64,000 bases of DNA from an uncultured Gammaproteobacteria bacterium. GTDB lineage: Bacteria; Patescibacteriota; Microgenomatia; Levybacterales; UBA12049. Shown piece by piece: positions 13,639 to 64,000 of this stretch. The stretch spans positions 2,688-66,687 of the forward strand of contig CAZCCG010000001.1 of assembly GCA_964497535.1 (NCBI GenBank), in the 5' to 3' direction. The translations under genes were made by a program, and so were the position numbers. Position 1 is the stretch's first letter. Each line of letters starts with the position of its first letter. Under the pieces are notes generated by a model. The model was given only the letters and a program-made list of their open reading frames with translations, was not told the DNA's origin and ran no database searches.

Positions 13639-13644
13639 AATAAT

Positions 13645-13775
13645 TCGGTTATCGGTTCTCAGTCTTCAGTTTTCGGATCCGAGTTTGCCAGTTTTCTGTT
13701 GATCAGTCAGAACCAATAGACTGAACCCCGATTAACCTACATCTGACAACAGATAACCGAGAACTGATAACTGGT
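13645..13775. repeat. MITE-like intergenic repeat family A, copy 1
   Basis: ttcggttatcggttctcagtcttcagttttc...gacaacagataaccgagaactgataactgg. Near-identical copies at 48585 and 56630. Confidence 0.8.
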
Positions 13776-16231: not shown

Positions 16232-16385
16232 GACTACAGTCTACGGTCTACAGCCAATCATGAATTAAGAATAAAGAATTATCCTTCGGCTGTGCTCAGG
16301 ACAAGTGAATCAAGGCGATACCATAACTCATAATTCATACTTCATAATTCCCAACTGTTAATTCTGAGAGGTAGTCAGTAGACTT
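16232..16385. repeat. MITE-like intergenic repeat family B, copy 1
   Basis: ...ccttcggctgtgctcaggacaagtgaatcaagg...cataactcataattcatacttcataattcccaactgttaattc, with inverted ctacagtctac / gtagac termini. Confidence 0.8.
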
Positions 16386-20121: not shown

Positions 20122-21945
20122 CTATTTCTTTCCCTGATCTTTATACATTGCGCTCAGTTCTTTTACTGTTGTTATATCTTCTGCTTTTTTATCATCTCGA
20201 AACTTCACAAGTCGTGGAAATCTAAGGGCATACCCTACTCCTTTTGCTCCATCTATAAGCTCCATACCTGCTGTGTGAATAGGACTTCTGGTTATTTCAT
20301 CAGCCAGTACCTCAATGACGATTTGGGGACGGATCCAGACAGAAGGAGTAATGAATGAATTTACCCGTGCTGGTTTGTGATCCACTTTTATCTTATCGGC
20401 ACGTCTGTGGATTTCAGTCCATTCTTCATCGGTAAGCCCCGTACCGATACGAGTTACTGTTACAAACTCATCTTTCTTGTCATCATAGACTCCGACAAGC
20501 AGTGATCCGGCACCAAATGATGTGCGCTTCCCCTTTCCATAGATGTATCCTAGAATCACAACGTCGATGGTGTCATGCAGTTCCCCGGCACTATGGCGCT
20601 TGAGTTTTACCCAATTAAAATTTCTTCCTCCTGCTACGTATCCAGAATCAGGCCGCTTCACTACAACCCCTTCAAGACCTTTGGAGATAGAATCATCAAG
20701 CATCAACTGTAATTCTTCAGGTTTATGTAATATTTTCCCCGGTGCCGGGATTAGCGTGTCATCACCCTGAATTGATTCCTTAAGCAATTTCATACGCTGA
20801 GTCAGGGGTGTATCAAGGAGAGATTTCCCATCAACATACAGAATGTCAAAGACAAACGCTTTGAGGGGAAGTTGTTTTGCTGTTTCTTCAATGTTGTGTT
20901 TGCGGCGTCTTTTGGTTGTTTCCTGAAACGGTAAAAATTCTTCTGATTCAGCATTGTAAGCTAATGCTTCTGAATCAAGTATTACCGTTTTTGCTTTTAC
21001 TTGTTTGAGTGTTCCTTCGATGAGTTCCGGGAACATATGGGTCATTGTTTCTAAGTTTCTGGAATACATCTCAACCTTAGTACCATTCTTGTGTATTTGC
21101 ACTCTGAACCCATCGTATTTTGGAGTTGCATGAACTCCCTGTCCAACTTGCCCTGAGCCTGCCGAAGGAGCTTGCCCTGAGCCTGCCGAAGGAGCTTGCC
21201 CTGAGCCTGCCGAAGGGTCCATCTTCTCAAATACTTTGGTGGGATTTGGGAGCCGTTCACAGAGTTCTGATCGAATGGGACGGCCAACCGTTACTTTTAA
21301 CTTCTCCACTGCCTTGAGACCATCTTCACAAAGCGTCTTACCAATAAGCCCCAGATCTGATGTTTCATTGTATGCTTTTTCAAGCAGTTTACGATTACTC
21401 TTATCTCCCAATATTGCCGTAGCCAACCCATCCAACACGGTCGGGTCTCCAATCCCAAGCCGATTGTTTCCAAGCGGTATCCGAACCAGATGTTTTGCAG
21501 CTACAGCATCCATATGCTCCAGAAGTTGCCTGAGTGCGGTTATTTTTTTCTCAACAGACCCTGCACCACCAAACTGCGCAATCTTGGTCAGCTCGTTAAA
21601 CACAGTTGTTACTGACAGTTCTTCTTTTTTTCCTTTGTGTCGTTTATGTTGTGCTAATTCAAAAGCAACAAGACCCAAATCTCCTTTTTTGTTGTAATCT
21701 GTAAGTACTTCATCTTTGGAAAGTCCAAACGCTTCTCCAATACTTTGTGCAACCATCTTGTCAGCCATGCCAATCTCAACCGGTGAGAAAAATGGCCCTA
21801 CTCTGCCTTGTGTGAGATAAATAATTTTATCAATCTCCTCTTTTTGAGCAGCTTTAAATAGATCAGACAAAATCTCGATGAGCTTCAACCGGGATGGCGT
21901 CTGCTCAAGTTTTTCAAAATATTCACTGAGAGTAGTAAATTTCAT
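20122..21945 (-). CDS. lig: ATP-dependent DNA ligase
   Basis: KYDGFRVQIH adenylation motif I (KxDG) and an OB-fold-like C-terminal domain. Confidence 0.85.
   Translation of the reverse strand: MKFTTLSEYFEKLEQTPSRLKLIEILSDLFKAAQKEEIDKIIYLTQGRVGPFFSPVEIGMADKMVAQSIGEAFGLSKDEVLTDYNKKGDLGLVAFELAQHKRHKGKKEELSVTTVFNELTKIAQFGGAGSVEKKITALRQLLEHMDAVAAKHLVRIPLGNNRLGIGDPTVLDGLATAILGDKSNRKLLEKAYNETSDLGLIGKTLCEDGLKAVEKLKVTVGRPIRSELCERLPNPTKVFEKMDPSAGSGQAPSAGSGQAPSAGSGQVGQGVHATPKYDGFRVQIHKNGTKVEMYSRNLETMTHMFPELIEGTLKQVKAKTVILDSEALAYNAESEEFLPFQETTKRRRKHNIEETAKQLPLKAFVFDILYVDGKSLLDTPLTQRMKLLKESIQGDDTLIPAPGKILHKPEELQLMLDDSISKGLEGVVVKRPDSGYVAGGRNFNWVKLKRHSAGELHDTIDVVILGYIYGKGKRTSFGAGSLLVGVYDDKKDEFVTVTRIGTGLTDEEWTEIHRRADKIKVDHKPARVNSFITPSVWIRPQIVIEVLADEITRSPIHTAGMELIDGAKGVGYALRFPRLVKFRDDKKAEDITTVKELSAMYKDQGKK
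21148..21219. repeat. in-frame 24-bp tandem repeat x3 inside the ligase gene (encodes PSAGSGQA x3)
   Basis: cttgccctgagcctgccgaaggag repeated three times. Confidence 0.85.
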
Positions 21946-34094: not shown

Positions 34095-34240
34095 CTTGAC
34101 TACAGTCTAATCATGAATTAAGAATAAAGAATTATCCTTCGGCTGTGCTCAGGACGAGTGAATCAAGGTAATACCATAACTCATAATTCATACTTCATAA
34201 TTCCCAATTGTTAACTACTGACTGCTAACTCCTCCTATAT
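34095..34240. repeat. repeat family B, copy 2
   Basis: Near-identical to 16232-16385. Confidence 0.8.
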
Positions 34241-40930: not shown

Positions 40931-41055
40931 TATGTATTATTCTAGCAAATCCTTCCCTGACGGGTTGGGTGTAGCACCGTGCCCTTGGCCGGTTGCTGGA
41001 TGGATCATCGAGCCAATACTCTCCCCATCTCTCACGATTTATTTAATTAATCCTA

Positions 41056-46825: not shown

Positions 46826-47686
46826 ATGAAGCAAATCGGATTACGGGATGCCCACCATGCATTTAAAGATTTTTTAAAGGAAAAAAAGCACTCAACATCT
46901 ACCATTGTAGCATATGGCAAAGACATCGAGCAGCTTGTTTCTTTTTTGGGTGAACTTGAAAAACATCAGGTTCATGAAGTGTCCAGAGAAGACCTGGAAG
47001 CTTTTTTGGGCAAACTTTCTGGAGAAGGCTATACTCCAAAGTCACTTTCCCGCAAAATTAACTCAACTCGAACCTTTTATCGATTCCTCAAGGTAAACGA
47101 ATACCTTACCGACGACCCGTCACTTCTGATCGAACATCCTAAATATGAACTTACTCCCCCACGAATTCTGACCCCAACCGAATATAGAGCACTCCGAGAC
47201 GCAGCCCGCAATGATCCCAGAATGTTTGCTATTATTGAGCTGTTACTCCAAACCGGAATCAGAATTGGAGAATTGGCTAATTTAAGAATGTCAGATATCC
47301 AAAAAGATATGCTGCGCATCCGACCCTACGAAAAACATGAAGAAAGAACAGTTCCTCTCAACAGATCAGCCAAAGAAGCCCTCACTAGATACCTCTCTAT
47401 CCGCCCGGAAGTCAAAGAAGAAAGAATTTTTGTCACCAAATCAGGCAAACCGTTTTTGGTCAGAAACATCAGAACCGCAGTAGAACGATATTTCCGACTT
47501 GCTGAGATCAAAACAGCCAAGGTAAATGATCTACGACACACCTTTGTCGCCCATCACTTGAAACATGGAGTATCCCTTATCCTTCTCTCAAAGATACTCG
47601 GACACAAGAGACTTTCTACCACTGAACGATATCTCGAATACGTGAAAGATAGGGCTAAAGAAACCGCTACATTAACAGAATTATAA
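46826..47686 (+). CDS. tyrosine recombinase (XerC/XerD-like phage-integrase family)
   Basis: N-terminal SAM-like core-binding domain. C-terminal R...HxxR...Y: LRHTFVAHHL...LGHKRLSTTERY. Confidence 0.8.
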   Translation: MKQIGLRDAHHAFKDFLKEKKHSTSTIVAYGKDIEQLVSFLGELEKHQVHEVSREDLEAFLGKLSGEGYTPKSLSRKINSTRTFYRFLKVNEYLTDDPSLLIEHPKYELTPPRILTPTEYRALRDAARNDPRMFAIIELLLQTGIRIGELANLRMSDIQKDMLRIRPYEKHEERTVPLNRSAKEALTRYLSIRPEVKEERIFVTKSGKPFLVRNIRTAVERYFRLAEIKTAKVNDLRHTFVAHHLKHGVSLILLSKILGHKRLSTTERYLEYVKDRAKETATLTEL

Positions 47687-47729
47687 TTTTTATAATAGTT
47701 ATAAAGATTATAACTATTATATCCTTCCC

Positions 47730-48443
47730 CTACGGCAATAAAATCCTGATGAAGTTCTCAGCGTAGGTATACCCTTTTTGCTTGCCAATATCCATTGCTC
47801 GATTCCTTACTCGCTCTTCTATTTTTTTAAAGTCCTCAAACTGGCTTTTGTGTCGACGTAGTGTTTCAATTTTCTTCTCCATAGTATGGGTAATATCCAC
47901 AACCGTATCTATCTTTTCAAAGCTGGTGAGCCATAATTCTTTTACTTTGTGCGGCTTAAGGCCTTCTTTCTCATGTTCCAAGAAAGTGAGTCGGTCTCGA
48001 GCCAGTGGAAATACCGCATCGAGTGTTGCCAAGGCAGCTGCCCGATGGTCAGTGTGATTCACCATACCGCTGCCTGAAAGCAGTGAATTTGTCGAATAAT
48101 AGTAGGTCGGATCCATAGTCATGACGATATCTGGTTTCAAGGTTCGGATCAGCCGTACGATTTCTTCTTTGAGTACCTGATCAGCAACCAGTTCTGTATC
48201 AGGATGGGTCAGAAAAAAACACTGTTTGACGCCTAATACTTTATTTGCATCTTTCTGTTCTTGTTGCCGTAGCGTAATCAGCTTCTGATGAGTCATATGA
48301 GGATCTGAAGAACCCTTGGAACCGTTTGTACATAAAAGATAATATGCAGTTGCTCCCTCCCCGATCCATTTGGCAATCGTCCCTGACGCGCCAAAATCAG
48401 TATCATCCGGATGCGCACCAACCGCCAAAATTACTTTATTCAT
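47730..48443 (-). CDS. PIG-L/LmbE-family N-acetylglucosaminyl deacetylase
   Basis: ILAVGAHPDDTDFGASGT motif. Confidence 0.8.
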   Translation of the reverse strand: MNKVILAVGAHPDDTDFGASGTIAKWIGEGATAYYLLCTNGSKGSSDPHMTHQKLITLRQQEQKDANKVLGVKQCFFLTHPDTELVADQVLKEEIVRLIRTLKPDIVMTMDPTYYYSTNSLLSGSGMVNHTDHRAAALATLDAVFPLARDRLTFLEHEKEGLKPHKVKELWLTSFEKIDTVVDITHTMEKKIETLRRHKSQFEDFKKIEERVRNRAMDIGKQKGYTYAENFIRILLP

Positions 48444-48463
48444 AGTATCTCTTCTCTCAACTG

Positions 48464-48534
48464 TAGGCCCAGAGGGAATCGGACCCCCGTCAAGTGTGTA
48501 TAAGACACCCGCTCTACCATTGAGCTATGGGCCT
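48464..48534 (-). tRNA. tRNA with anticodon TAT (tRNA-Ile-UAU, AUA-decoding)
   Basis: Hand-folded. Perfect 7-bp acceptor AGGCCCA/TGGGCCT, D-arm GCTC-AATGGTA-GAGC, anticodon loop CTTATAC, T-arm GGGGG-TCCGATT-CCCTC. Confidence 0.65.
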
Positions 48535-48584
48535 GGGAACTACGTAATTTTACCAGAGAGAGCTCAAGGAGACAAGCCAGGACT

Positions 48585-48715
48585 CGGTTACCAGTTCTCT
48601 GTTTTCTGTCATCAGATAGAAGTTCGTCAGTTTTCGGTACTTCAGTTTTAACAGATTAACTGAGAACAGATAAACCCGCATCTGATAACTGACAACCAAA
48701 AACCGATAACTGAAG
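48585..48715. repeat. repeat family A, copy 2
   Basis: Diverged copy of the 13645 element. Confidence 0.7.
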
Positions 48716-48724
48716 TTTCTATTC

Positions 48725-51091
48725 TTATAATCGAGCACGTTGTCCTATTTCTGCTTCGACCACGTGTACATCGCGGCCGTATTTGAGGCGGGAAAGCTCT
48801 TTGACGAGCTCGGAGACTCTCAAGTTCATCATAGATTTCTCAACAGCAACATCTTTGGTAGTATCCAGAGAAAAGGGAGGTACCGGTTCTCCCCCCACAA
48901 TAGTACGCACATAACAATTATACTTATCGACATTAATCAAATCTGCTTCGGTAAATACTGGCGTGAATTCATGCTGCAAATAGTTGGCATCAGTCACACC
49001 TACACGGAATGACGCAATCGTACCAACGTTTCCAAAAATAGCGTTTTTGACCTCTTCATCCATTTGTCCGATAAATTGGTTGGCAACAATCAACGACAAA
49101 CGGTATTTTCGGGCTTCAGATAGTATTTGGGCAAAATCAGGAGTCGCAAAGTTTTGAAACTCATCAACATAGAGAAAGAAATCACGCCGCAGCTCTTTGG
49201 CCATTGTCTGCCGGCTCATAGCAGCCACCAAAATCTGCGGTACGATAATAAGACCCAGGAAGTTGGAGTTCTCTTCCCCGATTTTACCTTTTGATAAATC
49301 AATGAGAAGAATTTTTCCCTCATCCATAGCTTTTCGCGCGTTAAACGCGCTTTCCGATTGTCCAATAATATTTCGAATCATTTTGTTGGTAACAAAGCGG
49401 CCGAATTTGGAGACGATATAATCCAACACTTCGGATTTATGAAAATCAGAGGTTTGGGCAATCTGATCTGTCCAGTACCTTCGAATAACCGGATCTTCTA
49501 CTTTTGGCAATAACTCTTGCACAAAGTTTTGATCTGTTAATGCCCGCACTACTTCCATAAATGTCGCGCCCGGTTCATACATACAGGTAAGCATGGCATT
49601 TCGCACTGCGTGTTCAAAACGGGGTCCAATAATACCGGTCTTATTTGGATCAAAGAGCTTGTACATAAGCCCAATGACTGAAGACACTACCAAATGTTTC
49701 TGTTGCTCAGTCTCGCCATAGAGCATGTTCATACCCAATGGCCGCTGTGTATCTGAAGGATCAAAAAGAATGACGTCTTCTGCCCGATTTGGCGGCATCA
49801 GCCGCAATATATCTTCAATCAAATCACCATGAGGATCAATAACAGCCAATCCCTCGCCTGCTTTGATGTCTTGCATAATCATTGATTTCAAAAGCTCTGA
49901 TTTCCCCGTACCGGTCTTTCCAATGATATACATATGCCGCATACGATCCTCTCGTTCAATATATACGGGTTTTGAAACACCTCGAAAGACACTATTTCCC
50001 AAAAAAGTACCGCTTGTTGGCAATTTTGCAGGAGCGGGAGCCCGTTTGGAGTCGACCCAATGAATCCCGGGGGTAGTAACGCTTTTATTGGGTAAGTGGA
50101 ACAATGTTGCTAATTCTTCTGAAGATAAGATACTTTTGCCACCAAACAGGGGCATATACCGATATAAAAAGTCCTGCATAAACATATTTCTGGTAAAAAA
50201 GTATGATTTATGCTTGGTAAATGAATTGAGTCCTTCAAATTGAGCAAATGCACTTCGAATATTATGCAAATGTGCTTCCGCTGCCTCAGTACTGCTGGAG
50301 GAGACAACAATACGAATAACCGATTTAAATCCTGGTTTTGAAGTTTTGTTGTCAACCCCTTCTAATTCTTTTTGGTCTGTCGAGTAACTTGCTTTTTCAG
50401 GATTTGATTCATTCTTTTTAGTCTTGGCGAGATATTTTTTCCCAATTTTTTTCCAGGATGAATCTGCAGGCTCCAACATAATCTGAATTGCAGCCCCCTC
50501 CCCCGGAGACATTTTTGCCAATACTGAAGTTATAGAAGCCAAAGGATCAGTTGGTAAGTCTTTAAAAACCTTGATTGGCAAATAGTTGGATGATTTCAGT
50601 GTTAACGTAATAAAAGCAACCTTCCCTGTTTCAGAAAAAATATTGTATTCATTACCTACAATATTTTCTATTTTTTGCCGGGAATGTTTGGGGTCGACAA
50701 TAGTAATATCTGCCTCAGGATATGCTCCGTTGATTTGTTTTTCTACCAAATCACGATATTTATTGGGAGTATGAACATAGAAGCGGATATCCCCCGGCAT
50801 ACCGACAATTTCAAAAGAAAGTGTCGGCTGAGAACGAAAAAAATCAAGATTACCGGTCCTACGAAGAGATGAAAGGCTGGCAAACATCTGTTCGGCCGCA
50901 TCAATTTTGATCTCGTTATTGCGAGGAACAGCAATCTGCAGAAGTGTTGAGTTAAGCGCGTCTGATTCTCGTCCCCGATTTCTATACCATAACAGCAATA
51001 GACGCCCCAACAGGAACAAGAATCCTGCACCGAATAGAAGTCCCACAAGACTTACTAACAGTACCAAAAGTGATGATGTAATATCTGTCAT
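48725..51091 (-). CDS. membrane-anchored P-loop ATPase, TraG/VirD4/TraD (type-IV coupling protein) or HerA/DUF87-like
   Basis: N-terminal TM helix. MYIIGKTGTGKSELL Walker A, IDPHGDL, Walker-B-like FLYVDEFQNF, RKYRLSLIVANQ. Confidence 0.55.
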   Translation of the reverse strand: MTDITSSLLVLLVSLVGLLFGAGFLFLLGRLLLLWYRNRGRESDALNSTLLQIAVPRNNEIKIDAAEQMFASLSSLRRTGNLDFFRSQPTLSFEIVGMPGDIRFYVHTPNKYRDLVEKQINGAYPEADITIVDPKHSRQKIENIVGNEYNIFSETGKVAFITLTLKSSNYLPIKVFKDLPTDPLASITSVLAKMSPGEGAAIQIMLEPADSSWKKIGKKYLAKTKKNESNPEKASYSTDQKELEGVDNKTSKPGFKSVIRIVVSSSSTEAAEAHLHNIRSAFAQFEGLNSFTKHKSYFFTRNMFMQDFLYRYMPLFGGKSILSSEELATLFHLPNKSVTTPGIHWVDSKRAPAPAKLPTSGTFLGNSVFRGVSKPVYIEREDRMRHMYIIGKTGTGKSELLKSMIMQDIKAGEGLAVIDPHGDLIEDILRLMPPNRAEDVILFDPSDTQRPLGMNMLYGETEQQKHLVVSSVIGLMYKLFDPNKTGIIGPRFEHAVRNAMLTCMYEPGATFMEVVRALTDQNFVQELLPKVEDPVIRRYWTDQIAQTSDFHKSEVLDYIVSKFGRFVTNKMIRNIIGQSESAFNARKAMDEGKILLIDLSKGKIGEENSNFLGLIIVPQILVAAMSRQTMAKELRRDFFLYVDEFQNFATPDFAQILSEARKYRLSLIVANQFIGQMDEEVKNAIFGNVGTIASFRVGVTDANYLQHEFTPVFTEADLINVDKYNCYVRTIVGGEPVPPFSLDTTKDVAVEKSMMNLRVSELVKELSRLKYGRDVHVVEAEIGQRARL

Positions 51092-52765: not shown

Positions 52766-53365
52766 TTATTCATGGGTTCTCCATTCTATTTCTTTTTTCT
52801 TTTCTCTCATATTTACATAGCGAGCCATGGTAAATAGTACATCTGCCAAACGGTTCAGATATGCGACAATCTGCTCTTCTACCGCTTCTCCTTCAAATAA
52901 ATTAATTACTCTTCGTTCTGCCCTGCGGCAAATAGAGCGGGCCAGATGCACCGACGAACCCGCAACCGAACCGCTGGGCAAAATAAAAGAATGCATTGGC
53001 TTGAGTTTTTCAGTAAGTTCATCAATCGTCTGTTCCAATTCTTTGACACGCTTTTTTAAATATGATGGCAAGGTTTTGTGGATCTCCATTCCCTTGGTCA
53101 CATGAGTATCATGAGGGGTTGCCAACACTGCACCGATTTCAAATAAATCCTTTTGTATCTGATCCAATTCATTTTTGAAGTTCTTCTTATATTTTTGGTT
53201 TTTAACTCTCGAGTTTTGGATTTGTGCACTGGCAAAACCCAATGCGCTATTGAGTTCATCAACAGTCCCAACAGCGTCAATTCGCCCGGAGCTTTTTGAG
53301 ATTCTCTTGCCTCCAAACAGTGATGTTTCTCCCCTGTCTCCAGTACGTGTATAGATTTTACTCAT
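52766..53365 (-). CDS. pduO: PduO-type ATP:cob(I)alamin adenosyltransferase
   Basis: MSKIYTRTGDRGETSL...GRIDAVGTVDELNSALG signature. Confidence 0.85.
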   Translation of the reverse strand: MSKIYTRTGDRGETSLFGGKRISKSSGRIDAVGTVDELNSALGFASAQIQNSRVKNQKYKKNFKNELDQIQKDLFEIGAVLATPHDTHVTKGMEIHKTLPSYLKKRVKELEQTIDELTEKLKPMHSFILPSGSVAGSSVHLARSICRRAERRVINLFEGEAVEEQIVAYLNRLADVLFTMARYVNMREKKKEIEWRTHE

Positions 53366-53864
53366 AAAAAATCCTCCTTGTTTCAGAACCCAAGAAGGAT
53401 GTGCGCACAAAAAAAATCCTGCTCGGGAACATCCACCAGCTGGCGGAAAAAGTATAGTTTTCTGGCTTTCCCTTCAATTCACTCAGGTAAAGGAAAATTT
53501 ATCCTGAGCTTGTCGAAGGACAGTAGCGGCACTGCCATGGATTTGCACCATGATTGCCTATACTTCCAATTTTTTATACTACGCTCTTTCTTTTTTGCAA
53601 TCAATACCCTATAACAAATTGCCTCTGTGAAGTAACTGGAGTATAATAGCTAGATTCAAAGTTGATCAAATCACTATTTGCGATCTGATTTTCTTTGAAA
53701 TCAGTACCTTAACATGTATGGAATAAATACCCTTTTTTCTCGGCAGAGACCACAGGAATGACAGTATCACCGATACTCTTTCTTTGGTCTTTGCTAAGAG
53801 GAGGGCAAAGGAAGAAACGGTAGACAATGCATCCATTACGCAACTCTCATAAGAGAAGGAGCTA

Positions 53865-54023
53865 TGGGTCAACAAGAAATCATCCACTGTGGCCAGTGCG
53901 GGACACCCATTCACATAACTAACCTTAAGCAAGTTCCACGAGCTGAAGGGATAGAGCTGAAATGCCCCGTCTGCCACGGTACACCCATAGTCAAACCCTA
54001 CTGTGAGTCTCGCGACAATTAGG
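53865..54023 (+). CDS. small zinc-ribbon protein (52 aa), absent from the ORF track
   Basis: Strong RBS AGAAGGAG 5 nt before the ATG. MGQQEIIHCGQCGT...CPVCHG, i.e. CxxC...CxxC. Confidence 0.45.
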
Positions 54024-54032
54024 GGAGTCCTG

Positions 54033-54317
54033 ATGGATCAGATTCCACCTCTCTGTGGCATCGAACGATGCAAACCTAGGGGTAGAAAGTTCAAAGTGGT
54101 CGTTATCAACCAGCACGCGCTGGGTGATGAAGCCATCACGAGGGCACTCTCACATCAACAGGGAAACTACAACCATCCTTTGGATATTACATCTCTGCGG
54201 GAACTCAGCAAAGAGAACGCAGAAGCATGGTGCGCCATGATAAATGACGTGCATCAGAAACTGGTAGCCTTCATCACACCGCCCGAGAACAAGAAGACAG
54301 TTGCACAGGAGGCATGA
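54033..54317 (+). CDS. hypothetical protein (high-GC island)
   Basis: MDQIPPLCGIERC..., with RBS GGGGAG. Confidence 0.4.
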   Translation: MDQIPPLCGIERCKPRGRKFKVVVINQHALGDEAITRALSHQQGNYNHPLDITSLRELSKENAEAWCAMINDVHQKLVAFITPPENKKTVAQEA

Positions 54318-54318
54318 T

Positions 54319-55128
54319 ATGCAACTTCTCGATGGGAAAACTGCTCTGATCTTTGGCGTTGCCAACGAGCGTAGTTTGGCCTGGGGCATCGCACAGGCGC
54401 TTGCCGCCCAGGGTGCAATGTTGGCGTTTACTTACGCAGCAGACGCGCTGGAGAAGCGGGTTCGCCCGCTAGCTGCTCAGGTCGGTTCCCACTTCGTCGA
54501 GCGCTGCGACGTTCAAGATGACACCGAGCTGGATACGGTATTCCGTCGCTTCGGCGAAGAATATTATCCACGGCTCGATATCCTTGTTCATGCAGTTGCG
54601 TTTGCAAAGCGAGAAGAACTCGCTGGACGCTACGTAGATACCTCCCGTGAGGGATTCCAATTGGCCCTCGACGTAAGTGCCTACTCCCTGGTGGCACTTG
54701 CTAAACGAGCTGCGCCGCTGATGGCAGGCACCAACCCGAGCATCCTGACGCTGACCTACGACGGCTCGCAACGCACGTATCCCAACTATAACGTGATGGG
54801 AGTGGCAAAAGCCGCTCTTGAGGCGAGTGTGCGATACCTCGCCCGAGATTTGAGCCCGGATGGTATTCGGATCAACGCAATCTCCGCTGGTCCAGTTCGG
54901 ACACTTGCATCATCTGGAATCCGTGGATTCCACTGGATTCTGGATCATGGTGCAGAACGAGCACCGCTACGTCGTAACATCGGACAAAGTGATGTCGGGG
55001 ATGCCGCTGTCTACCTCAGCTCTGACCTGGCCCGTAATGTCACAGGTCACGTGTTGTATGTTGATGCCGGTTCTCACATTGTTGGCGCAGAGCTAGGTGC
55101 CAGCGAGCGGGAAACTGCTGGCGACTAA
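54319..55128 (+). CDS. fabI: enoyl-[acyl-carrier-protein] reductase (NADH), FabI
   Basis: LDGKTALIFGVANERSLAWGIA N-terminus and the Y-x6-K region (YNVMGVAKAALE). ~57% GC. Confidence 0.9.
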   Translation: MQLLDGKTALIFGVANERSLAWGIAQALAAQGAMLAFTYAADALEKRVRPLAAQVGSHFVERCDVQDDTELDTVFRRFGEEYYPRLDILVHAVAFAKREELAGRYVDTSREGFQLALDVSAYSLVALAKRAAPLMAGTNPSILTLTYDGSQRTYPNYNVMGVAKAALEASVRYLARDLSPDGIRINAISAGPVRTLASSGIRGFHWILDHGAERAPLRRNIGQSDVGDAAVYLSSDLARNVTGHVLYVDAGSHIVGAELGASERETAGD

Positions 55129-55462
55129 TCCATTCCACACATCCTATCAGGGCGAGAGGGTGCAATCTTGTACTCTCCGCCCTGTAATTTTTACTTTTCA
55201 GCATTGGTTCGCGTAACGATCCGCGTAGTTCAGCGGTATTTTTGCGTTCTCTCTTCTTTTCCTCTATAATTCCAAACGAAGAATAATTCAGTTCCTTGTA
55301 GACTGTTGTTTTTCGCACATTTACATGTCTGCGCAAAAAAATCTTTGTTACAGAAGCAACGGCTATGGGAAGATAACTCCTTATCTTTCTGTAGGCTTTG
55401 CTTCTTCCTTCTTGGGTGCAACCCAAGAAAAATAACAGAGAAGCACGTCAGAAAGGGAACCC

Positions 55463-55915
55463 ATGAAATACAAAAGGCTTGTGAGTATTGTAGGAAACGG
55501 GATGCTGATGGTGGCGGGTCTTGGGCTTATGACAATCCCCACCAACATGCTGGTAATCATTCTGGGGATATCAGTCTATTCTATCGGAGTACTACAGTTC
55601 ATACAAGCACTTCGGCCCAGACCCCTGGTGAGACACTATGTCACCGACTTTGGTTATCGACTCGAGTTCTACCGACAAGCAGAGCTCTGGATATTTCGAC
55701 TTCAAAGGAAAAGGGGGAACAGACGTTTTAACCAATGGTATACCATCAGTCAATCCAGCTATTCTCCCCCCTTGACTCCCACGGGACTACACAGTCTGTA
55801 CGAACAGATATATAGAGGAGTGGATGCGGGATATGACCTGGAAGCAGGACGCCTCTGGAACCATATGCTGACATACCTGCACGGGCATCAACTCTTGGTA
55901 GGAGAATCTGCGTAA
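55463..55915 (+). CDS. membrane protein, hypothetical (high-GC island)
   Basis: Two N-terminal TM helices. Confidence 0.45.
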   Translation: MKYKRLVSIVGNGMLMVAGLGLMTIPTNMLVIILGISVYSIGVLQFIQALRPRPLVRHYVTDFGYRLEFYRQAELWIFRLQRKRGNRRFNQWYTISQSSYSPPLTPTGLHSLYEQIYRGVDAGYDLEAGRLWNHMLTYLHGHQLLVGESA

Positions 55916-55928
55916 GAAAGGACTGACT

Positions 55929-56531
55929 ATGCGTATCGCAGTCTTGTCTGAGGAACCCATCACTGAGTTCCCCCAGGAGGAGGGATTCGAGTGGACACGC
56001 GTCGGTCTCGACCCAGCAACCTGGTCACCCGGAAAATTCGATTGCTTCGTAGTGAAAAGCCCATACAGGAAACTCTTTATCCAGGAAGTAACCAAGAGGT
56101 GGAAATCCCGGAGCGATTTCCCTGCAGCTCCTTACCTTATGGTGTCACGCCGAGGACGGGTTCCCAAGGATTACCGCGACGGGTTCGACGGGTATGTGGT
56201 AAAACTACAGGAACTTGTAGAGTTTGCAGGAGCCATCAGCGACCGCAAGAGAGACTACGCCAACCGTAACAGAGTAGACACCCGACCTCCGTTGGAGCCT
56301 CCCCCTGTAGGTGAGAATCTATCCTGTTCCGAGTGCGGCCTGCTTCTGCGTACGACCGATCACGAAAAAGAGGGAGAGGACTATACCCCGTTCGTAGAAG
56401 AACGAACCCGGGGATGGGAAATCCCTTGTCCGGGATGCCACAACCCCCTGCGTATCTACGAATCGGTTACTGGACCCATACCCGAGTGGCAACCCCTCGT
56501 GGATGAGGCAGACTTGGGACGAGGCGTCTAG
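55929..56531 (+). CDS. hypothetical protein with C-terminal zinc ribbon
   Basis: CSECG...CPGCHNP. Confidence 0.5.
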   Translation: MRIAVLSEEPITEFPQEEGFEWTRVGLDPATWSPGKFDCFVVKSPYRKLFIQEVTKRWKSRSDFPAAPYLMVSRRGRVPKDYRDGFDGYVVKLQELVEFAGAISDRKRDYANRNRVDTRPPLEPPPVGENLSCSECGLLLRTTDHEKEGEDYTPFVEERTRGWEIPCPGCHNPLRIYESVTGPIPEWQPLVDEADLGRGV

Positions 56532-56556
56532 TACCACGCGCAGACACACCACACCA

Positions 56557-56583
56557 GGGCGGTCGAGTCTGACTCGACCGCCC
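56557..56583. repeat. GC-rich palindromic hairpin GGTCGAGTCTGACTCGACC (family shared with 662-686 and 63894-63917)
   Basis: gggcggtcgagtctgactcgaccgccc. Confidence 0.8.
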
Positions 56584-56629
56584 CCAAACATCCTCTACTA
56601 AATGCACCCATTGAAAGCTAAAATATGAA

Positions 56630-56762
56630 GTTCGGTTATCGGTTCTCAGTCTTCGGTTTTCAGATAAAGGTTCTTCAGTTTTCTGTTTATCAGTTAGAAC
56701 CGAAAGACCGATCACTGGTAAACTTCGCTCCGACAACTGACAACAGAGAACTGATAAGTGGA
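56630..56762. repeat. repeat family A, copy 3
   Basis: ttcggttatcggttctcagtcttcggttttc...gacaacagagaactgataagtgg. Confidence 0.8.
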
Positions 56763-56827
56763 ATAGATCCGCGTAAATCCGCTCTAAATCCGTGAAAATC
56801 AATTGAGGTATTGAAGAAATTGAACTA

Positions 56828-56869
56828 TACGCCACCAGCCTCGCCAGACGCGAGTCTAGGCGGGAACGC
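56828..56869. repeat. 42-bp inverted repeat, left copy (partner at 59806-59851) flanking nrdJ-nrdR
   Basis: tacgccaccagcctcgccagacgcgagtctaggcgggaacgc. Confidence 0.9.
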
Positions 56870-56888
56870 TTCTAACTAAACACTCCGG

Positions 56889-59267
56889 TTAGCAGGCGGA
56901 ATATCCGCAGGAGAAACATTTCTTGCAGCCTTCCTGATATGCCAGGGTCCCTGATCCACAATCAGGACAAATATCAAATAAATCAGTGTTGGGTAATCCT
57001 GTCGCTCCGCCTTCCAGGGTCAATTGCTGCATCATTGAAGATTTTTCTTCTGGTTCTGCCGCAACTGTATCCGCAGCAACCGGTGCATGATTATTTAGAC
57101 TCATCTTATCCTCTACGTGCCCATTCACTACAAATCCTGAATACTTTGCCATCACTTTTGCTACGGCGTCAGGCAATGATCTCACTCGATTGGGACCAAA
57201 CCCGACACTGCCTGAACCCCCAATACCTGCTAATTCTCCAACCAACGTTCTCATACGTTCTCTCCCCGGCACCGGGCTTGAGAGCCGCAAGAACTGAGAA
57301 ATAATGCGACCCAATGCATCTGCCATTGCCATGACATCTGATCCGGATTTTCCATGGTTGATAAAGACTTCAAACGGTTCATTTCCCCCATCATGATTAA
57401 TGGTAATATACACTTTTCCGGTTGGGGTCTCAGTCGCATATGTTACTCCCTGCACAACCATGGGACGAGGCAAAATCGGCTGTTCTTTTGCTTGCTCTAC
57501 AATCTCTTTTTTGACTTCTTCTTTTTTCTGATCCTCAACACGGGAGAGTACTCCTTCGCGGGATCCATCGCGCATATAGGTTACTCCTTTGAGTCCCAGA
57601 TCATACGCTGCCATGTAGAGTATCTTTACATCCTCAACAGTGTGGGAGTTAGGAGCATTCACAGTCTTTGAAATAGATGAATCAATATATTCCTGCGCAA
57701 CTGCTTGTACCTGAGCATGCTCCATGGGGTTTAAATCGTTTGCGCCGACATAATACCCCGGCTTTTCTGCATCTGGATGGTCTTTTTTCCATTCTTCAAA
57801 GAGCGGATGATACATGATGTGTTCTCCGGTTCGATCCCGTCGGATAAAGGTGAATTCATATACCGGTTCGACCCCTGATGAGACACCGGACAGAAGACTT
57901 GTCGTACCGGTTGGGGCAATCGTCAATAGCACTGCATTACGAATCCCCTGTTTTTTAATTTTGTCCCTGATTTTCTTTGGCAATGCTTTGATGTGATAGC
58001 CTTTCATATACTTTTTATTATCAAATTTGGGGAAGGCTCCTTTTTCTTTGGCAATATCAGAAGATGCATCATAGGCATTGTCACGAAGAACCTGGAACAT
58101 CTTTCGAATCGTCGGCATTGCTTCCTCTGATCCATAGCGCAGTTTCATTTTTATCAATGCGTCAGCAAGTCCCATGATCCCCAGTCCCGTTCGTCTGATC
58201 TCTTTGGCAATCTGCTCATTCTCAGGGAAGAAATAATAAGTCTGATCAATAACATTGTCCAAAAACCGCATGGCAACACGAACATCTTTACCAAACTGGT
58301 CAAAATCAAATTTCTCATCTTTCACATACGCTGCCAGATTCATGGCACCCAGATTGCATACTGCCCATGGCCCAAGCGGTTGCTCTCCACAGGGATTGGT
58401 TGCAACCAGTCTTTCAAAATACCAGGTGTTTGACCGCTTGTTGGATCGCTCCAGAAAATGAAGTCCCGGTTCTGCACTTCTCCATGCAGCAGTACAGATC
58501 AAATCCCACAAATATTTTGCTTTGATAGTCTTGTAGACTTTGACTTTCCCACCCATTTTCTTCCATTCATCCAGTTCCCCTCTCCAATGGGTATCATAAC
58601 GGGGATCATCCAGATCAGCGTATACCAGATCCCAATCTGAATCTTTTTTGACTGCTTCCATGAAAGCATCCGATACACAAACCGACAAATTGGCACCATT
58701 GATCTTTGAGAGGTCTTGTTTGACTGTAATAAATTCTTCAACATCCGGATGCCAATCCCACAGCATAAGCATTGTGGCCCCACGACGAGTACCGCCTTGT
58801 TGCACGACATCATGAGTTGCGTAGGAGAAAAGCCCTGCCCACGTGACTGGACCCGATGAAGTTCCATTGACCTTTTTGACACGCGCGCCACGCGGTCGAA
58901 GAGATGAAAGATTAAGCCCTACTCCGCCTGAGCGGGATTGAATTTCAACCAATTGTTTGAGTGAGTCCAAAATTCCTTCTCGTGAATCTTTGGGAGATGG
59001 GATAACGAAACAATTAAAATACGTAACCTGGTATCCTGTTCCGGCACCGGATAAGATGCGCCCACCGGGAACAAATTTAAAATCGGACATGACATTATAA
59101 AATGCCTCTTCCCACTGTGCCCGTTTTGGAGCTTTTTCAATTTCTGCGATACCCCGAGCAACCCGTCTCCACATGTCTTCTGGTGTTGGTTCTGTGGGAT
59201 TCCCCTCTTTATCTTTCAAAGAGTATCGATCCAAAAATACTTTTTCGCGAATTCCGTCAAGTTTCAT
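56889..59267 (-). CDS. nrdJ: adenosylcobalamin-dependent ribonucleotide reductase (class II, monomeric type)
   Basis: NPCGEQPL active-site motif, B12-binding region, C-terminal zinc ribbon CPDCGSG...CKKCFSCG. Confidence 0.9.
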   Translation of the reverse strand: MKLDGIREKVFLDRYSLKDKEGNPTEPTPEDMWRRVARGIAEIEKAPKRAQWEEAFYNVMSDFKFVPGGRILSGAGTGYQVTYFNCFVIPSPKDSREGILDSLKQLVEIQSRSGGVGLNLSSLRPRGARVKKVNGTSSGPVTWAGLFSYATHDVVQQGGTRRGATMLMLWDWHPDVEEFITVKQDLSKINGANLSVCVSDAFMEAVKKDSDWDLVYADLDDPRYDTHWRGELDEWKKMGGKVKVYKTIKAKYLWDLICTAAWRSAEPGLHFLERSNKRSNTWYFERLVATNPCGEQPLGPWAVCNLGAMNLAAYVKDEKFDFDQFGKDVRVAMRFLDNVIDQTYYFFPENEQIAKEIRRTGLGIMGLADALIKMKLRYGSEEAMPTIRKMFQVLRDNAYDASSDIAKEKGAFPKFDNKKYMKGYHIKALPKKIRDKIKKQGIRNAVLLTIAPTGTTSLLSGVSSGVEPVYEFTFIRRDRTGEHIMYHPLFEEWKKDHPDAEKPGYYVGANDLNPMEHAQVQAVAQEYIDSSISKTVNAPNSHTVEDVKILYMAAYDLGLKGVTYMRDGSREGVLSRVEDQKKEEVKKEIVEQAKEQPILPRPMVVQGVTYATETPTGKVYITINHDGGNEPFEVFINHGKSGSDVMAMADALGRIISQFLRLSSPVPGRERMRTLVGELAGIGGSGSVGFGPNRVRSLPDAVAKVMAKYSGFVVNGHVEDKMSLNNHAPVAADTVAAEPEEKSSMMQQLTLEGGATGLPNTDLFDICPDCGSGTLAYQEGCKKCFSCGYSAC

Positions 59268-59335
59268 AATAGTCTCTGTATTGTAATACTGTTTTGTAAA
59301 GATTGAAACAAGTATTTTGCGCTAAATCTGTAATA

Positions 59336-59785
59336 CTACTGTAATAGCCTTTTTACTTCTTTTTCAAAATCTTCTACGTCGACAAAGCGCTTAAATACAC
59401 TTGAAAACCGGATATATGCTACCTTGTCAATTTTTTTCAATCGGTTTGCTGCTAAGTGTCCAATCCGTTTACTCTCTACTTCAACCGAATCGGCACTCAA
59501 AAGCTCTTTTTCTACTTCATCAACAATTCTGTCGATCTGTTCCAAAGAAACGGTCGTCTTTTCTGTTGATTTTAACAGTCCCTGTTTTAATTTTTCCCGT
59601 TTGAACTGCTCTCTCTTCCCATCCTTTTTGGTAACGAATAAGTTGACCGATTCAACCCGTTCGTATGTGGTAAACCGCTTACCGCAGTCAAGACACGAGC
59701 GACGCCTGCGAATCGTTTCCAAATCTTCACTGTCTCGCGTCTCTACTACTTCTGTTTCTCTTCCTCTGCAATACGGACACCTCAT
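59336..59785 (-). CDS. nrdR: transcriptional repressor NrdR
   Basis: MRCPYCRG...CLDCGKRFTTYERVE zinc ribbon plus ATP-cone. Confidence 0.9.
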   Translation of the reverse strand: MRCPYCRGRETEVVETRDSEDLETIRRRRSCLDCGKRFTTYERVESVNLFVTKKDGKREQFKREKLKQGLLKSTEKTTVSLEQIDRIVDEVEKELLSADSVEVESKRIGHLAANRLKKIDKVAYIRFSSVFKRFVDVEDFEKEVKRLLQ

Positions 59786-59805
59786 AACTAAGCGTTTAGT
59801 TCAAT

Positions 59806-59851
59806 AGCGTTCCCGCCTAGACTCGCGTCTGGCGAGGCTGGTAGCGTATAG
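59806..59851. repeat. 42-bp inverted repeat, right copy (one mismatch vs 56828-56869)
   Basis: rc = tacgctaccagcctcgccagacgcgagtctaggcgggaacgc. Confidence 0.9.
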
Positions 59852-60098
59852 TTGATTTCTATCGTTCAGTTATCTGCCTATAACTAAATGTTCAAAAAAT
59901 TAGCCGCTCAACGCTCACTACAACTAGTGGTAATAACTAGAATAGGACACTATATATGCGGTGTCAACTGGAAATTTCTGTATCAAAACCCAGCAGTGGT
60001 GTTTTCTAGCTTCATTCTTTGTTTTTTCAGGATTTGCTGAATTGGAGGTGAATTATTGCTGAGAAAAATTGAGTATAAAAAGATGACAACTGAAGAAT

Positions 60099-62480: not shown

Positions 62481-62544
62481 GATAAAACCGGCAAGTGGAT
62501 AAATCCAATGCTACTACAAAATTTTCAATTTGAAATTTTCATTG

Positions 62545-62662
62545 AATCCTTCGACTCCGCTCAGAACAAGTGAATCAAAGCAATACCATAACTCATAATT
62601 CATACTTCATGATTCCCAACTGTTAATTCTTAGCGGTAGACTGTAGTCTGTAGACCACCGTT
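62545..62662. repeat. repeat family B, copy 3
   Basis: ...gaacaagtgaatcaaagcaataccataactcataattcatacttcatgattcccaactgttaattc...gtagactgtagtctgtagacc. Confidence 0.8.
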
Positions 62663-63826: not shown

Positions 63827-63893
63827 ACTTTCACTATATGAAGAAGCCAAAAGGAAGTCAATAGGAAACACAGTATTTTTTGTGGAATAAATG

Positions 63894-63917
63894 GGGGTCG
63901 AGTCAGACTCGACCCCC
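63894..63917. repeat. GC-rich palindromic hairpin GGTCGAGTCAGACTCGACC (inverted orientation of the 56557 copy) at the onset of a high-GC segment
   Basis: gggggtcgagtcagactcgacccccc; the sequence after it is visibly GC-rich. Confidence 0.8.
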
Positions 63918-64000
63918 CGACTTGGTGACTAGCGGCTCGTCGTTGGTGCCGGACAGCTTAACTGCCATGCATCCAATGGGTGCGTCCGGCACCACTGCCG

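Follow-up and report, generated by a model that had tools for sequence, protein, structure and literature searches.

Why should a ribonucleotide reductase (RNR) operon be enclosed by two long, GC-rich inverted repeats? This question is raised by the nrdR-nrdJ operon in a 64,000-nucleotide (nt) stretch of contig CAZCCG010000001.1, hereafter the window, from an uncultured bacterium of the Levybacterales. An initial annotation had proposed that the repeats mark an invertible or mobile cassette, a recently acquired B12-dependent RNR module, or complementary 5' and 3' untranslated regions (UTRs) of the nrd transcript. Our comparisons point to a different answer. The two arms of the inverted repeat are probably oppositely oriented copies of a small, GC-rich, non-autonomous hairpin repeat that resembles the repetitive extragenic palindromes (REPs), placed at either end of an otherwise ordinary operon.

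Extent of the inverted repeat

A repeat search of the window confirmed the inverted repeat around nrdR-nrdJ and found it to be larger than first described. The arms (56818-56870 and 59806-59858) are 53 nt each with 50 of 53 positions complementary (94%) and a spacing of 2935 nt. Within them, a stretch of 35 nt is exact (56835-56869 on the plus strand and 59807-59841 on the minus strand). When a 1-nt indel was allowed, the similarity between the arms grew to about 64 to 65 nt and reached the aactaaac motif, which alignment placed just to the inner side of each arm, as had been reported, at 56874-56881 and 59794-59801. This arm pair is the second-longest inverted repeat of the window, the number of arm matches expected from shuffles was 0, and no third copy of an arm with three or fewer mismatches was found in the 64 kb. 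The features of the two arms, in the element sense that we use throughout, are as follows.

56818..56881, plus strand: left arm, extended unit; element sense on the plus strand and antisense to nrdJ; begins 8 nt past the nrdJ stop codon
56835..56864, plus strand: invariant 30-nt core of the left arm, with a CCAGC tail, a 10-bp imperfect stem, one bulged A, a G·U pair and a GCGA loop
59794..59858, minus strand: right arm, extended unit; element sense as nrdR; within the nrdR 5' leader, ending 8 nt before the ATG
59812..59841, minus strand: invariant 30-nt core of the right arm

Several details of the earlier description could be refined. The 42-mer with one mismatch was correct in its single C/T difference (at 56833), but its right arm had been delimited as 46 nt and not 42. 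Likewise, the CTCGC/GCGAG hairpin does fold, but it belongs to the opposite strand, and the best fold of the element sense differs from it, running CUCGCC-AGAC-[GCGA]-GUCU-(A)-GGCGGG. The contrast in base composition was borne out, with 73% GC in the arms against 41% GC in the window, as was the observation that the arms bracket nrdJ and nrdR, both of which were confirmed by Pfam.

The arms are not an artefact of assembly, because independent short-read contigs agree with the window. Five such contigs from three independent runs were 100% identical to it. Repeats of this kind break short-read assemblies, and all five of the contigs examined end within the 35-nt exact repeat, so that the orientation of the inner segment cannot be read from them.

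The nrdR-nrdJ operon in relatives without the arms

We compared the operon and its control region with those of related genomes. The relevant features of the window are as follows.

59336..59785, minus strand: nrdR, a Zn-ribbon and ATP-cone repressor of 149 aa (Pfam)
56889..59267, minus strand: nrdJ-type class II B12-dependent ribonucleotide reductase of 792 aa (Pfam)
59939..59967, minus strand: nrdR promoter, with -35 TTGACA (59962-59967), a 17-nt spacer and -10 TATTCT (59939-59944)
59916..59929, minus strand: NrdR box 2, CACTAGTTGTAGTG, just 3' of the predicted start site and 5' of the right arm

An independent promoter scan of the window also chose TTGACA-17-TATTCT at 59967-59939, and NrdR box 1 (about 59947-64) overlaps this promoter. 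The same design is common to Levybacteria relatives, in which a TTGACA overlapping box 1 is followed by 17 nt, the -10 element and then a box 2 of the form CACTA-N4-TAGTG. The arms bear no resemblance to NrdR operators, and the conserved boxes stand upstream of the right arm.

The NrdJ protein of the window is 67 to 76% identical to those of 80 species-level genomes, nearly all of which belong to Candidatus Levyibacteriota or other Patescibacteria. Across about 80 related Levybacteria loci, the gene order gap, cmk-like, DUF5667, nrdR, nrdJ, pduO, ..., T4CP-like is kept almost without exception, and nrdR-nrdJ occupies the identical place in the identical order in 78 to 81 related loci and in the close relative L095. 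Because synteny, promoter and NrdR boxes are conserved in relatives, the operon is ancestral and not acquired. It is an old resident with its own conserved NrdR control region, and it is not the operon that moved. The recurrence of this gene order, promoter and pair of boxes in essentially all 80 related loci refutes the proposal of a mobile or recently acquired RNR module.

L095 is a 40.9-kb contig whose NrdJ falls in the same cluster. Over the span bounded exactly by the nrdR ATG and the nrdJ stop codon it is 82% identical to the window at the nucleotide level, and it keeps the operon at the same place without either arm. No core-like sequence was found in L095, even when seven errors were allowed. 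The alignment continues across the promoter and both NrdR boxes, and beyond box 2 the leader is 22 nt in L095 versus 128 nt in the window. At the other end of the operon, three tandem repeats of about 10 nt start 7 nt past the nrdJ stop codon in L095. The window has a homologous array in a different position.

56767..56800, strand not assigned: tandem repeat of 10 nt in 3.3 copies, just outside the left arm; homologous to the L095 repeats

In the window, a block of about 90 nt that holds the left arm displaces these tandem repeats from the nrdJ stop codon, and L095 lacks the block. The position of the L095 array directly after the stop codon thus marks the outer edge of the inserted block. The unit of about 10 nt (ATCCGCGTAA / CGCTGATNTA) is present in about three copies downstream of nrdJ in both sequences (window 56767-56800, L095 12393-12430) and may represent a conserved protein-binding array.

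Complementarity between leader and trailer was at or near shuffle level in 69 other relatives, with scores of 45 or less versus 103 in the window. As L095 and these 69 relatives are without the 5'/3' complementarity, the bracketing of nrdRJ is lineage specific, and the comparisons indicate that the arms are recent insertions in this lineage.

The possibility that nrdRJ is a mobile or newly acquired cassette, a composite element with terminal inverted repeats, draws on two observations, namely that the inverted repeats bracket exactly nrdR and nrdJ and that they adjoin a variable, higher-GC block. Nonetheless, flanking gene order, promoter and NrdR boxes are kept in about 80 relatives, L095 has the operon in place without the repeats, and no transposase lies within or beside the segment. 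We therefore give this explanation almost no chance of being correct.

The adjoining block and the ancestral downstream neighbors of nrdJ are as follows.

53599..56817, strand not assigned: lineage-specific block (orf103, fabI-like, orf150, orf200, a GC hairpin and a 131-nt repeat) between nrdJ and the riboswitch-pduO module
53439..53598, minus strand: cobalamin-riboswitch match preceding pduO; sub-threshold, at 25.9 bits for a gathering score of 31.5
52766..53410, minus strand: pduO-type cobalamin adenosyltransferase, the ancestral downstream neighbor of nrdJ (module 52766..53598)

The left arm abuts the edge of the lineage-specific block at 53599-56817. The nrdJ-pduO spacer is shorter than 430 nt in 45 of 71 loci, 1 to 3.2 kb in 25 of 71 and 3.48 kb in the window, and among Levybacteria it is generally prone to insertions. 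The block has a higher GC content than its surroundings; its fabI-like enoyl-ACP reductase gene is 55% GC, and orf200 contains zinc-ribbon motifs. The high-GC block is absent from all 80 species-level relatives, and the fabI-like gene is present in L095 (12818-13612). Several Levybacteria have, directly behind the B12-dependent nrdJ, an adenosylcobalamin (AdoCbl)-II riboswitch that controls the pduO-type adenosyltransferase (L004 3994-4073, L021 8470-8541, L022 8528-8608, L040 8539-8618 and L060 8482-8579).

Since the right arm lies between the promoter and the gene, an inversion between the arms would disconnect nrdRJ from its promoter. We considered a site-specific inversion switch, in which the 30-mers would be recombinase core sites of an 11-8-11 layout and the 2.9-kb segment would flip, uncoupling nrdRJ from the promoter and turning the operon off. 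The inverted orientation of the 53-nt arms, 2935 nt apart, suits such a switch, as does the symmetry of the core, with 8 of 11 positions matching (9 of 11 in a 32-nt variant described below) and only 0.4% of shuffles reaching 8. However, no invertase adjoins the segment, whose neighbors are DUF5667, cmk-like, orf200 and orf150. An Xer-like gene, the sole recombinase of the window, is 9 kb away and is syntenic in relatives without the element. Moreover, the core is solitary at unrelated loci elsewhere, the assembled orientation is the ancestral orientation, and silencing of what is possibly the only RNR would be lethal. An inversion switch is thus very unlikely, and the invertible cassette of the initial annotation is not supported. 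The 53 bp of inverted homology could permit a rare RecA-dependent inversion. The attractive picture in which this Levybacterium carries its B12-dependent RNR genes on a cassette that jumps or flips is accordingly set aside.

A 30-nt hairpin core at unrelated loci

The part of the arms that recurs elsewhere is an invariant core of 30 nt, CCAGCCTCGCCAGACGCGAGTCTAGGCGGG, which consists of an unpaired CCAGC tail, a 10-bp imperfect stem and a GCGA loop. Nine metagenome stretches contained an exact match to a 25-nt piece of the core, and these reduce to six distinct loci whose flanks are unrelated. The sequence common to the window and these six other loci is exactly the 30-mer, with sharp edges. 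By the initial annotation, a common element at many unrelated loci would count against its readings, and we found this to hold for the 30-nt core in other genomes. A scan of species-level genomes with the 35-mer gave zero matches, but the query held window-specific bases and was uninformative on the core; a covariance model of the core run over 1.07 Mb of related loci added one weak candidate, in L060.

The settings of the core are diverse. On one Patescibacteria metagenome-assembled genome it lies directly 5' of the rpsO start codon and also in a 3' flank between convergent genes. Another instance precedes a tmRNA gene by about 25 nt, and a further one is in a 5' UTR. Two open reading frames (ORFs) contain the core in frame, one a surface-protein gene of 1407 aa and the other the pheT gene of a Daviesbacteria-like organism. 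When the arms are included, exact copies of the core occupy eight loci, six of them extragenic (5' leaders and 3' flanks) and two in frame in ORFs; the two riboswitch-loop variants described below are noncoding as well. Of ten element instances, seven read in the direction of the local gene, those in the leaders of nrdR, rpsO and tmRNA among them. Among pheT homologues, two of 98% and 87% identity carry the insert and two of 89% and 80% identity do not. The net insertion in pheT is 8 codons and not 10, with the ends of the core overlapping preexisting Pro and Gly codons.

The mode of insertion was clearest for a 32-nt variant found in two Levybacteria, in which an extra T pairs with the bulged A of the stem to give one more base pair. 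This variant lies antisense inside an AdoCbl-II riboswitch and splits its conserved loop, GUGA^AAUUC. Deletion of the 32 nt in silico gave a gap-free alignment with the intact riboswitches of relatives, and no target duplication was seen at the loop, with no base duplicated or lost. Because the empty state is known at this site and deletion restores the alignment, the variant represents a precise insertion without target duplication. Direct repeats flanking the other core instances were not found. The interrupted riboswitches are at L040 9196-9306 and L042 8552-8662, with the variant in the conserved GUGAAAUUC loop; in L042 no riboswitch other than the interrupted copy was found before pduO, and the score of this copy falls short of the reporting threshold.

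Searches for a known identity of the core were negative. Rfam 15, at gathering and permissive (E <= 10) thresholds, gave no match over the element in the window or in L085, L087, L088, L090 and L091, and the overlapping AdoCbl-II hit in L040 is the host riboswitch on the other strand. Likewise, 72,556 plasmids gave no meaningful match to the core, and viral contigs gave none. A vector or artefact origin was ruled out by these plasmid and viral results together with the agreeing independent assemblies. A literature search by sequence strings found no publication on the core sequence. The hairpin repeat is therefore undescribed in Rfam and in the literature searched. The nrd locus itself is ordinary. 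Self-cleaving ribozyme, group II domain 5, riboswitch and CRISPR-repeat identities were dropped for want of a model hit. In addition, the flanking bases needed for the domain 5 helix vary between instances, and only one match was found per contig, whereas a CRISPR array would be expected to give several.

We also considered a covarying outer stem around the core and dropped it for the window arms, as flank helices were mostly no better than shuffles; such a stem was upheld only for the known riboswitch stem and for L084 (11 bp). At two unrelated loci from different samples (L085 645-715 and L087 384-452), the core sits within the same 71-nt unit, 90% identical, which has a flanking 5-bp helix with compensatory changes (GCGGC/GCCGC versus GCCCC/GGGGC) and a second hairpin with a GAAG loop. 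The L087 unit is immediately upstream of tmRNA.

REPs, or tagged palindromic repeats, are 20 to 40 bp long with stems of 5 to 13 bp and loops of 2 to 20 nt, and bulges are allowed (Di Nocera et al., PMC3733652). They carry an unpaired GTAG or CGTC tag, reach tens to thousands of copies per genome and are associated with a REP-associated tyrosine transposase (RAYT) of the Y1/HUH type; some families are nested within target palindromes that are specific to a lineage, and units can also form inverted pairs (PMC3733652). The core, with its 30 nt, 10-bp stem, 4-nt loop, bulged A and G·U pair, agrees with REPs in size and stem, and it shares with them the lack of target-site duplication and a mostly extragenic location near gene ends with occasional in-frame units. 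We favor a REP-like repeat on account of this tail and bulged hairpin, the 30-nt size, the absence of target duplication, the gene-end location, the rare in-frame copies and the varied flanks.

In such a model, about 65 nt would have been copied in this lineage, comprising the core with about 17 nt on its 5' side and about 14 nt on its 3' side. One copy would have entered the nrdR 5' leader, downstream of NrdR box 2 and ahead of the start codon, and the other would have been placed immediately past the nrdJ stop codon. By analogy with the action of RAYT/HUH enzymes on REPs, a trans-acting enzyme may recognize the tagged hairpin, probably as single-stranded DNA, and copy the element. Local copying of the first arm probably gave rise to the second. 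The effect on the locus may amount at most to one RNA hairpin at each end of the nrdRJ transcript, either of which alone could, as for REPs, protect the end that carries it.

Several observations weigh against a REP-like repeat. Both known copies in this genome flank one operon, which is improbable for random insertion, so that either local copying or selection is needed to explain them. The arms share the flanks of about 17 and 14 nt beyond the 30-nt core, which the other core instances lack, and the window holds neither a third copy nor an empty site. It is therefore conceivable that a longer, lineage-specific unit was mobile in this genome instead of the 30-nt core. Insertion of the arms into two copies of an older repeat was an explanation that we dropped, since the window contains no empty-site copies of a preexisting repeat that could have hosted them. 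Unlike REPs, every instance has a CCAGC tag, with neither GTAG nor CGTC at either end, and the two copies are 2.9 kb apart and do not form a tight dimer. Few copies were seen (two in the 64-kb window and two on one contig of at least 287 kb), and Pfam identified no transposase or Y1/RAYT gene among the roughly 60 window ORFs. Finally, the core is identical over several Patescibacteria lineages, a conservation stronger than is usual for REPs, whose families are usually species or genus specific.

Other small repeats match less well. The Rickettsia palindromic elements (RPEs) are likewise palindromic repeats of a reduced genome with in-frame and intergenic insertions, but they belong to a different taxon and are not similar in sequence, and the classical RPE-1, at about 100 to 150 bp, is longer than the 30-nt core. 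RPE-4 and RPE-6 have been equated with CGTC REPs (PMC3733652). Miniature inverted-repeat transposable elements (MITEs) are also short, noncoding, dispersed hairpin insertions with presence/absence polymorphism. In contrast to MITEs, the core shows no target-site duplication at the only site with a known empty state (the riboswitch loop), is conserved at its center and not at its ends, and is far shorter than described MITEs. No parent insertion sequence for the core was found in any locus examined; its internal symmetry is 11-8-11, at 8 of 11 positions. The GC clusters of yeast mitochondria are GC-rich palindromic mini-insertions of about 30 to 50 nt spread over an AT-rich genome, genes included, but these occur in eukaryotic organelles.

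A bolder proposal, which we hold to be possible but doubtful, is that the core is an undescribed, ultra-small mobile element of Patescibacteria. Its copying machinery would keep it identical while it spreads inside a lineage and from one lineage to another, with precise insertion and no target duplication, into leaders, hairpin loops (that of a B12 riboswitch included) and, in frame, essential genes such as pheT. By chance, a pair of copies would have given nrdRJ self-complementary mRNA ends or an invertible operon.

For annotation, these results imply that a short inverted repeat, where it is GC-rich and set in an AT-rich candidate-phyla genome, can consist of tiny dispersed hairpin copies. 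The repeat family is notable for its tiny size, precise insertions and identity across lineages, and a census that ties it to an enzyme would provide a handle on DNA mobility in unculturable organisms.

Predicted consequences at the RNA level and further features of the window

The right arm occupies about +75 to +127 of the nrdR leader, and no intrinsic terminator was predicted between the nrdJ stop codon and the left arm. As the right arm is 3' of the promoter and no terminator precedes the left arm, the transcript is expected to carry the element sense at its 5' end and the antisense at its 3' end. Co-folding of the arms gave -147 kcal/mol versus -72 kcal/mol for the separate folds (a gain of about 75), with shuffles at about -53. 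The model thus predicts an nrdRJ mRNA with strongly complementary ends, whose terminal duplex of about 53 bp could be an RNase III site or a protective panhandle. The processing stems and RNase III sites of rRNA operons similarly have long complementary flanks and a potential duplex of more than 50 bp; in contrast to these, the nrdRJ pairing is strain specific, flanks an mRNA, derives from a dispersed repeat and is a predicted duplex.

The arms might accordingly have been kept by selection for this terminal duplex, which would set RNR expression by being cut by RNase III or by protecting the ends. Both arms are predicted to be transcribed, the duplex energy is far below those of the separate folds and shuffles, and the arms are placed 8 nt from the ATG and 8 nt from the stop codon. 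The complementarity is nevertheless not conserved (L095 and 69 relatives), the core occurs singly in unrelated contexts, and the ends are 2.9 kb apart with translated RNA between them, all of which make selected end pairing improbable. The complementary UTRs of the initial annotation thus hold as far as the predicted duplex, the right arm in the leader and the missing terminator before the left arm are concerned. Their absence from L095 and the 69 relatives, however, makes the end complementarity look like a by-product and not a conserved device.

A second RNA-level explanation is that the 30-nt hairpin is a functional module, a protein- or RNA-binding motif recruited to transcripts, chiefly in 5' leaders, and not selfish DNA. 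One strand folds better, with the G·U pair and a GNRA loop in the element sense; 7 of 10 instances share the sense of the local gene; the change in the variant preserves structure; and sequence conservation is extreme. Set against these points are the in-frame ORF copies, the antisense copy in the riboswitch loop, the presence/absence polymorphism among close relatives, the lack of an Rfam match, gene contexts that are mutually unrelated and flank pairing that is mostly at chance level. We rate this explanation as improbable, on a par with selected end pairing, and a REP-like repeat remains the reading that we favor.

In the nrdR leader, AUAACUGAA pairs with the upstream UUUAGUUAU and could alternatively pair with UUAGUUAUG over the start codon (59785-59793, 59863-59871 and 59878-59886). 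This alternative pairing could be a real arrangement or a chance match in AT-rich DNA.

Other repeats were found in the window. A GC-rich 24-nt unit, CTTGCCCTGAGCCTGCCGAAGGAG, is present at 21147-21216 in 2.9 copies of 100% identity, in frame in an ATP-dependent DNA ligase ORF (20122-21945, minus strand). Located in the linker that joins the N-terminal and adenylation domains assigned by Pfam, it represents a further GC-rich insertion in frame in this genome. Perfect GC hairpins of a second family (662-686, 56557-56582 and 63893-63918) share the top CGAGTCWRACTCG with covarying bases beneath. Two of these hairpins are 9 and 26 nt past plus-strand ORF stop codons. All three lack a T-run after them, and they may be either terminators or members of a further mini-repeat family. 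A 131-nt repeat family (previously called family A) has copies at 13644-13774, 48583-48713 and 56631-56761, the last of which is 60 nt from the left arm. Further families comprise a 106-nt repeat (16256-16361, 34109-34214 and 62521-62626) and a 71-nt GC-rich repeat with two copies 143 nt apart (2783-2853 and 2926-2996).

Four features come together at 46826-51091, namely the genes of the Xer-like tyrosine recombinase and of a TrwB/HerA-like ATPase, a tRNA gene (48464-48534) and one of the copies of the 131-nt repeat. Because relatives have the recombinase and ATPase genes in synteny, this group is probably not a recent integrative element. An S-adenosylmethionine (SAM) riboswitch (S-box) is located at 40944-41043 on the minus strand, with a score of 48.3 bits.

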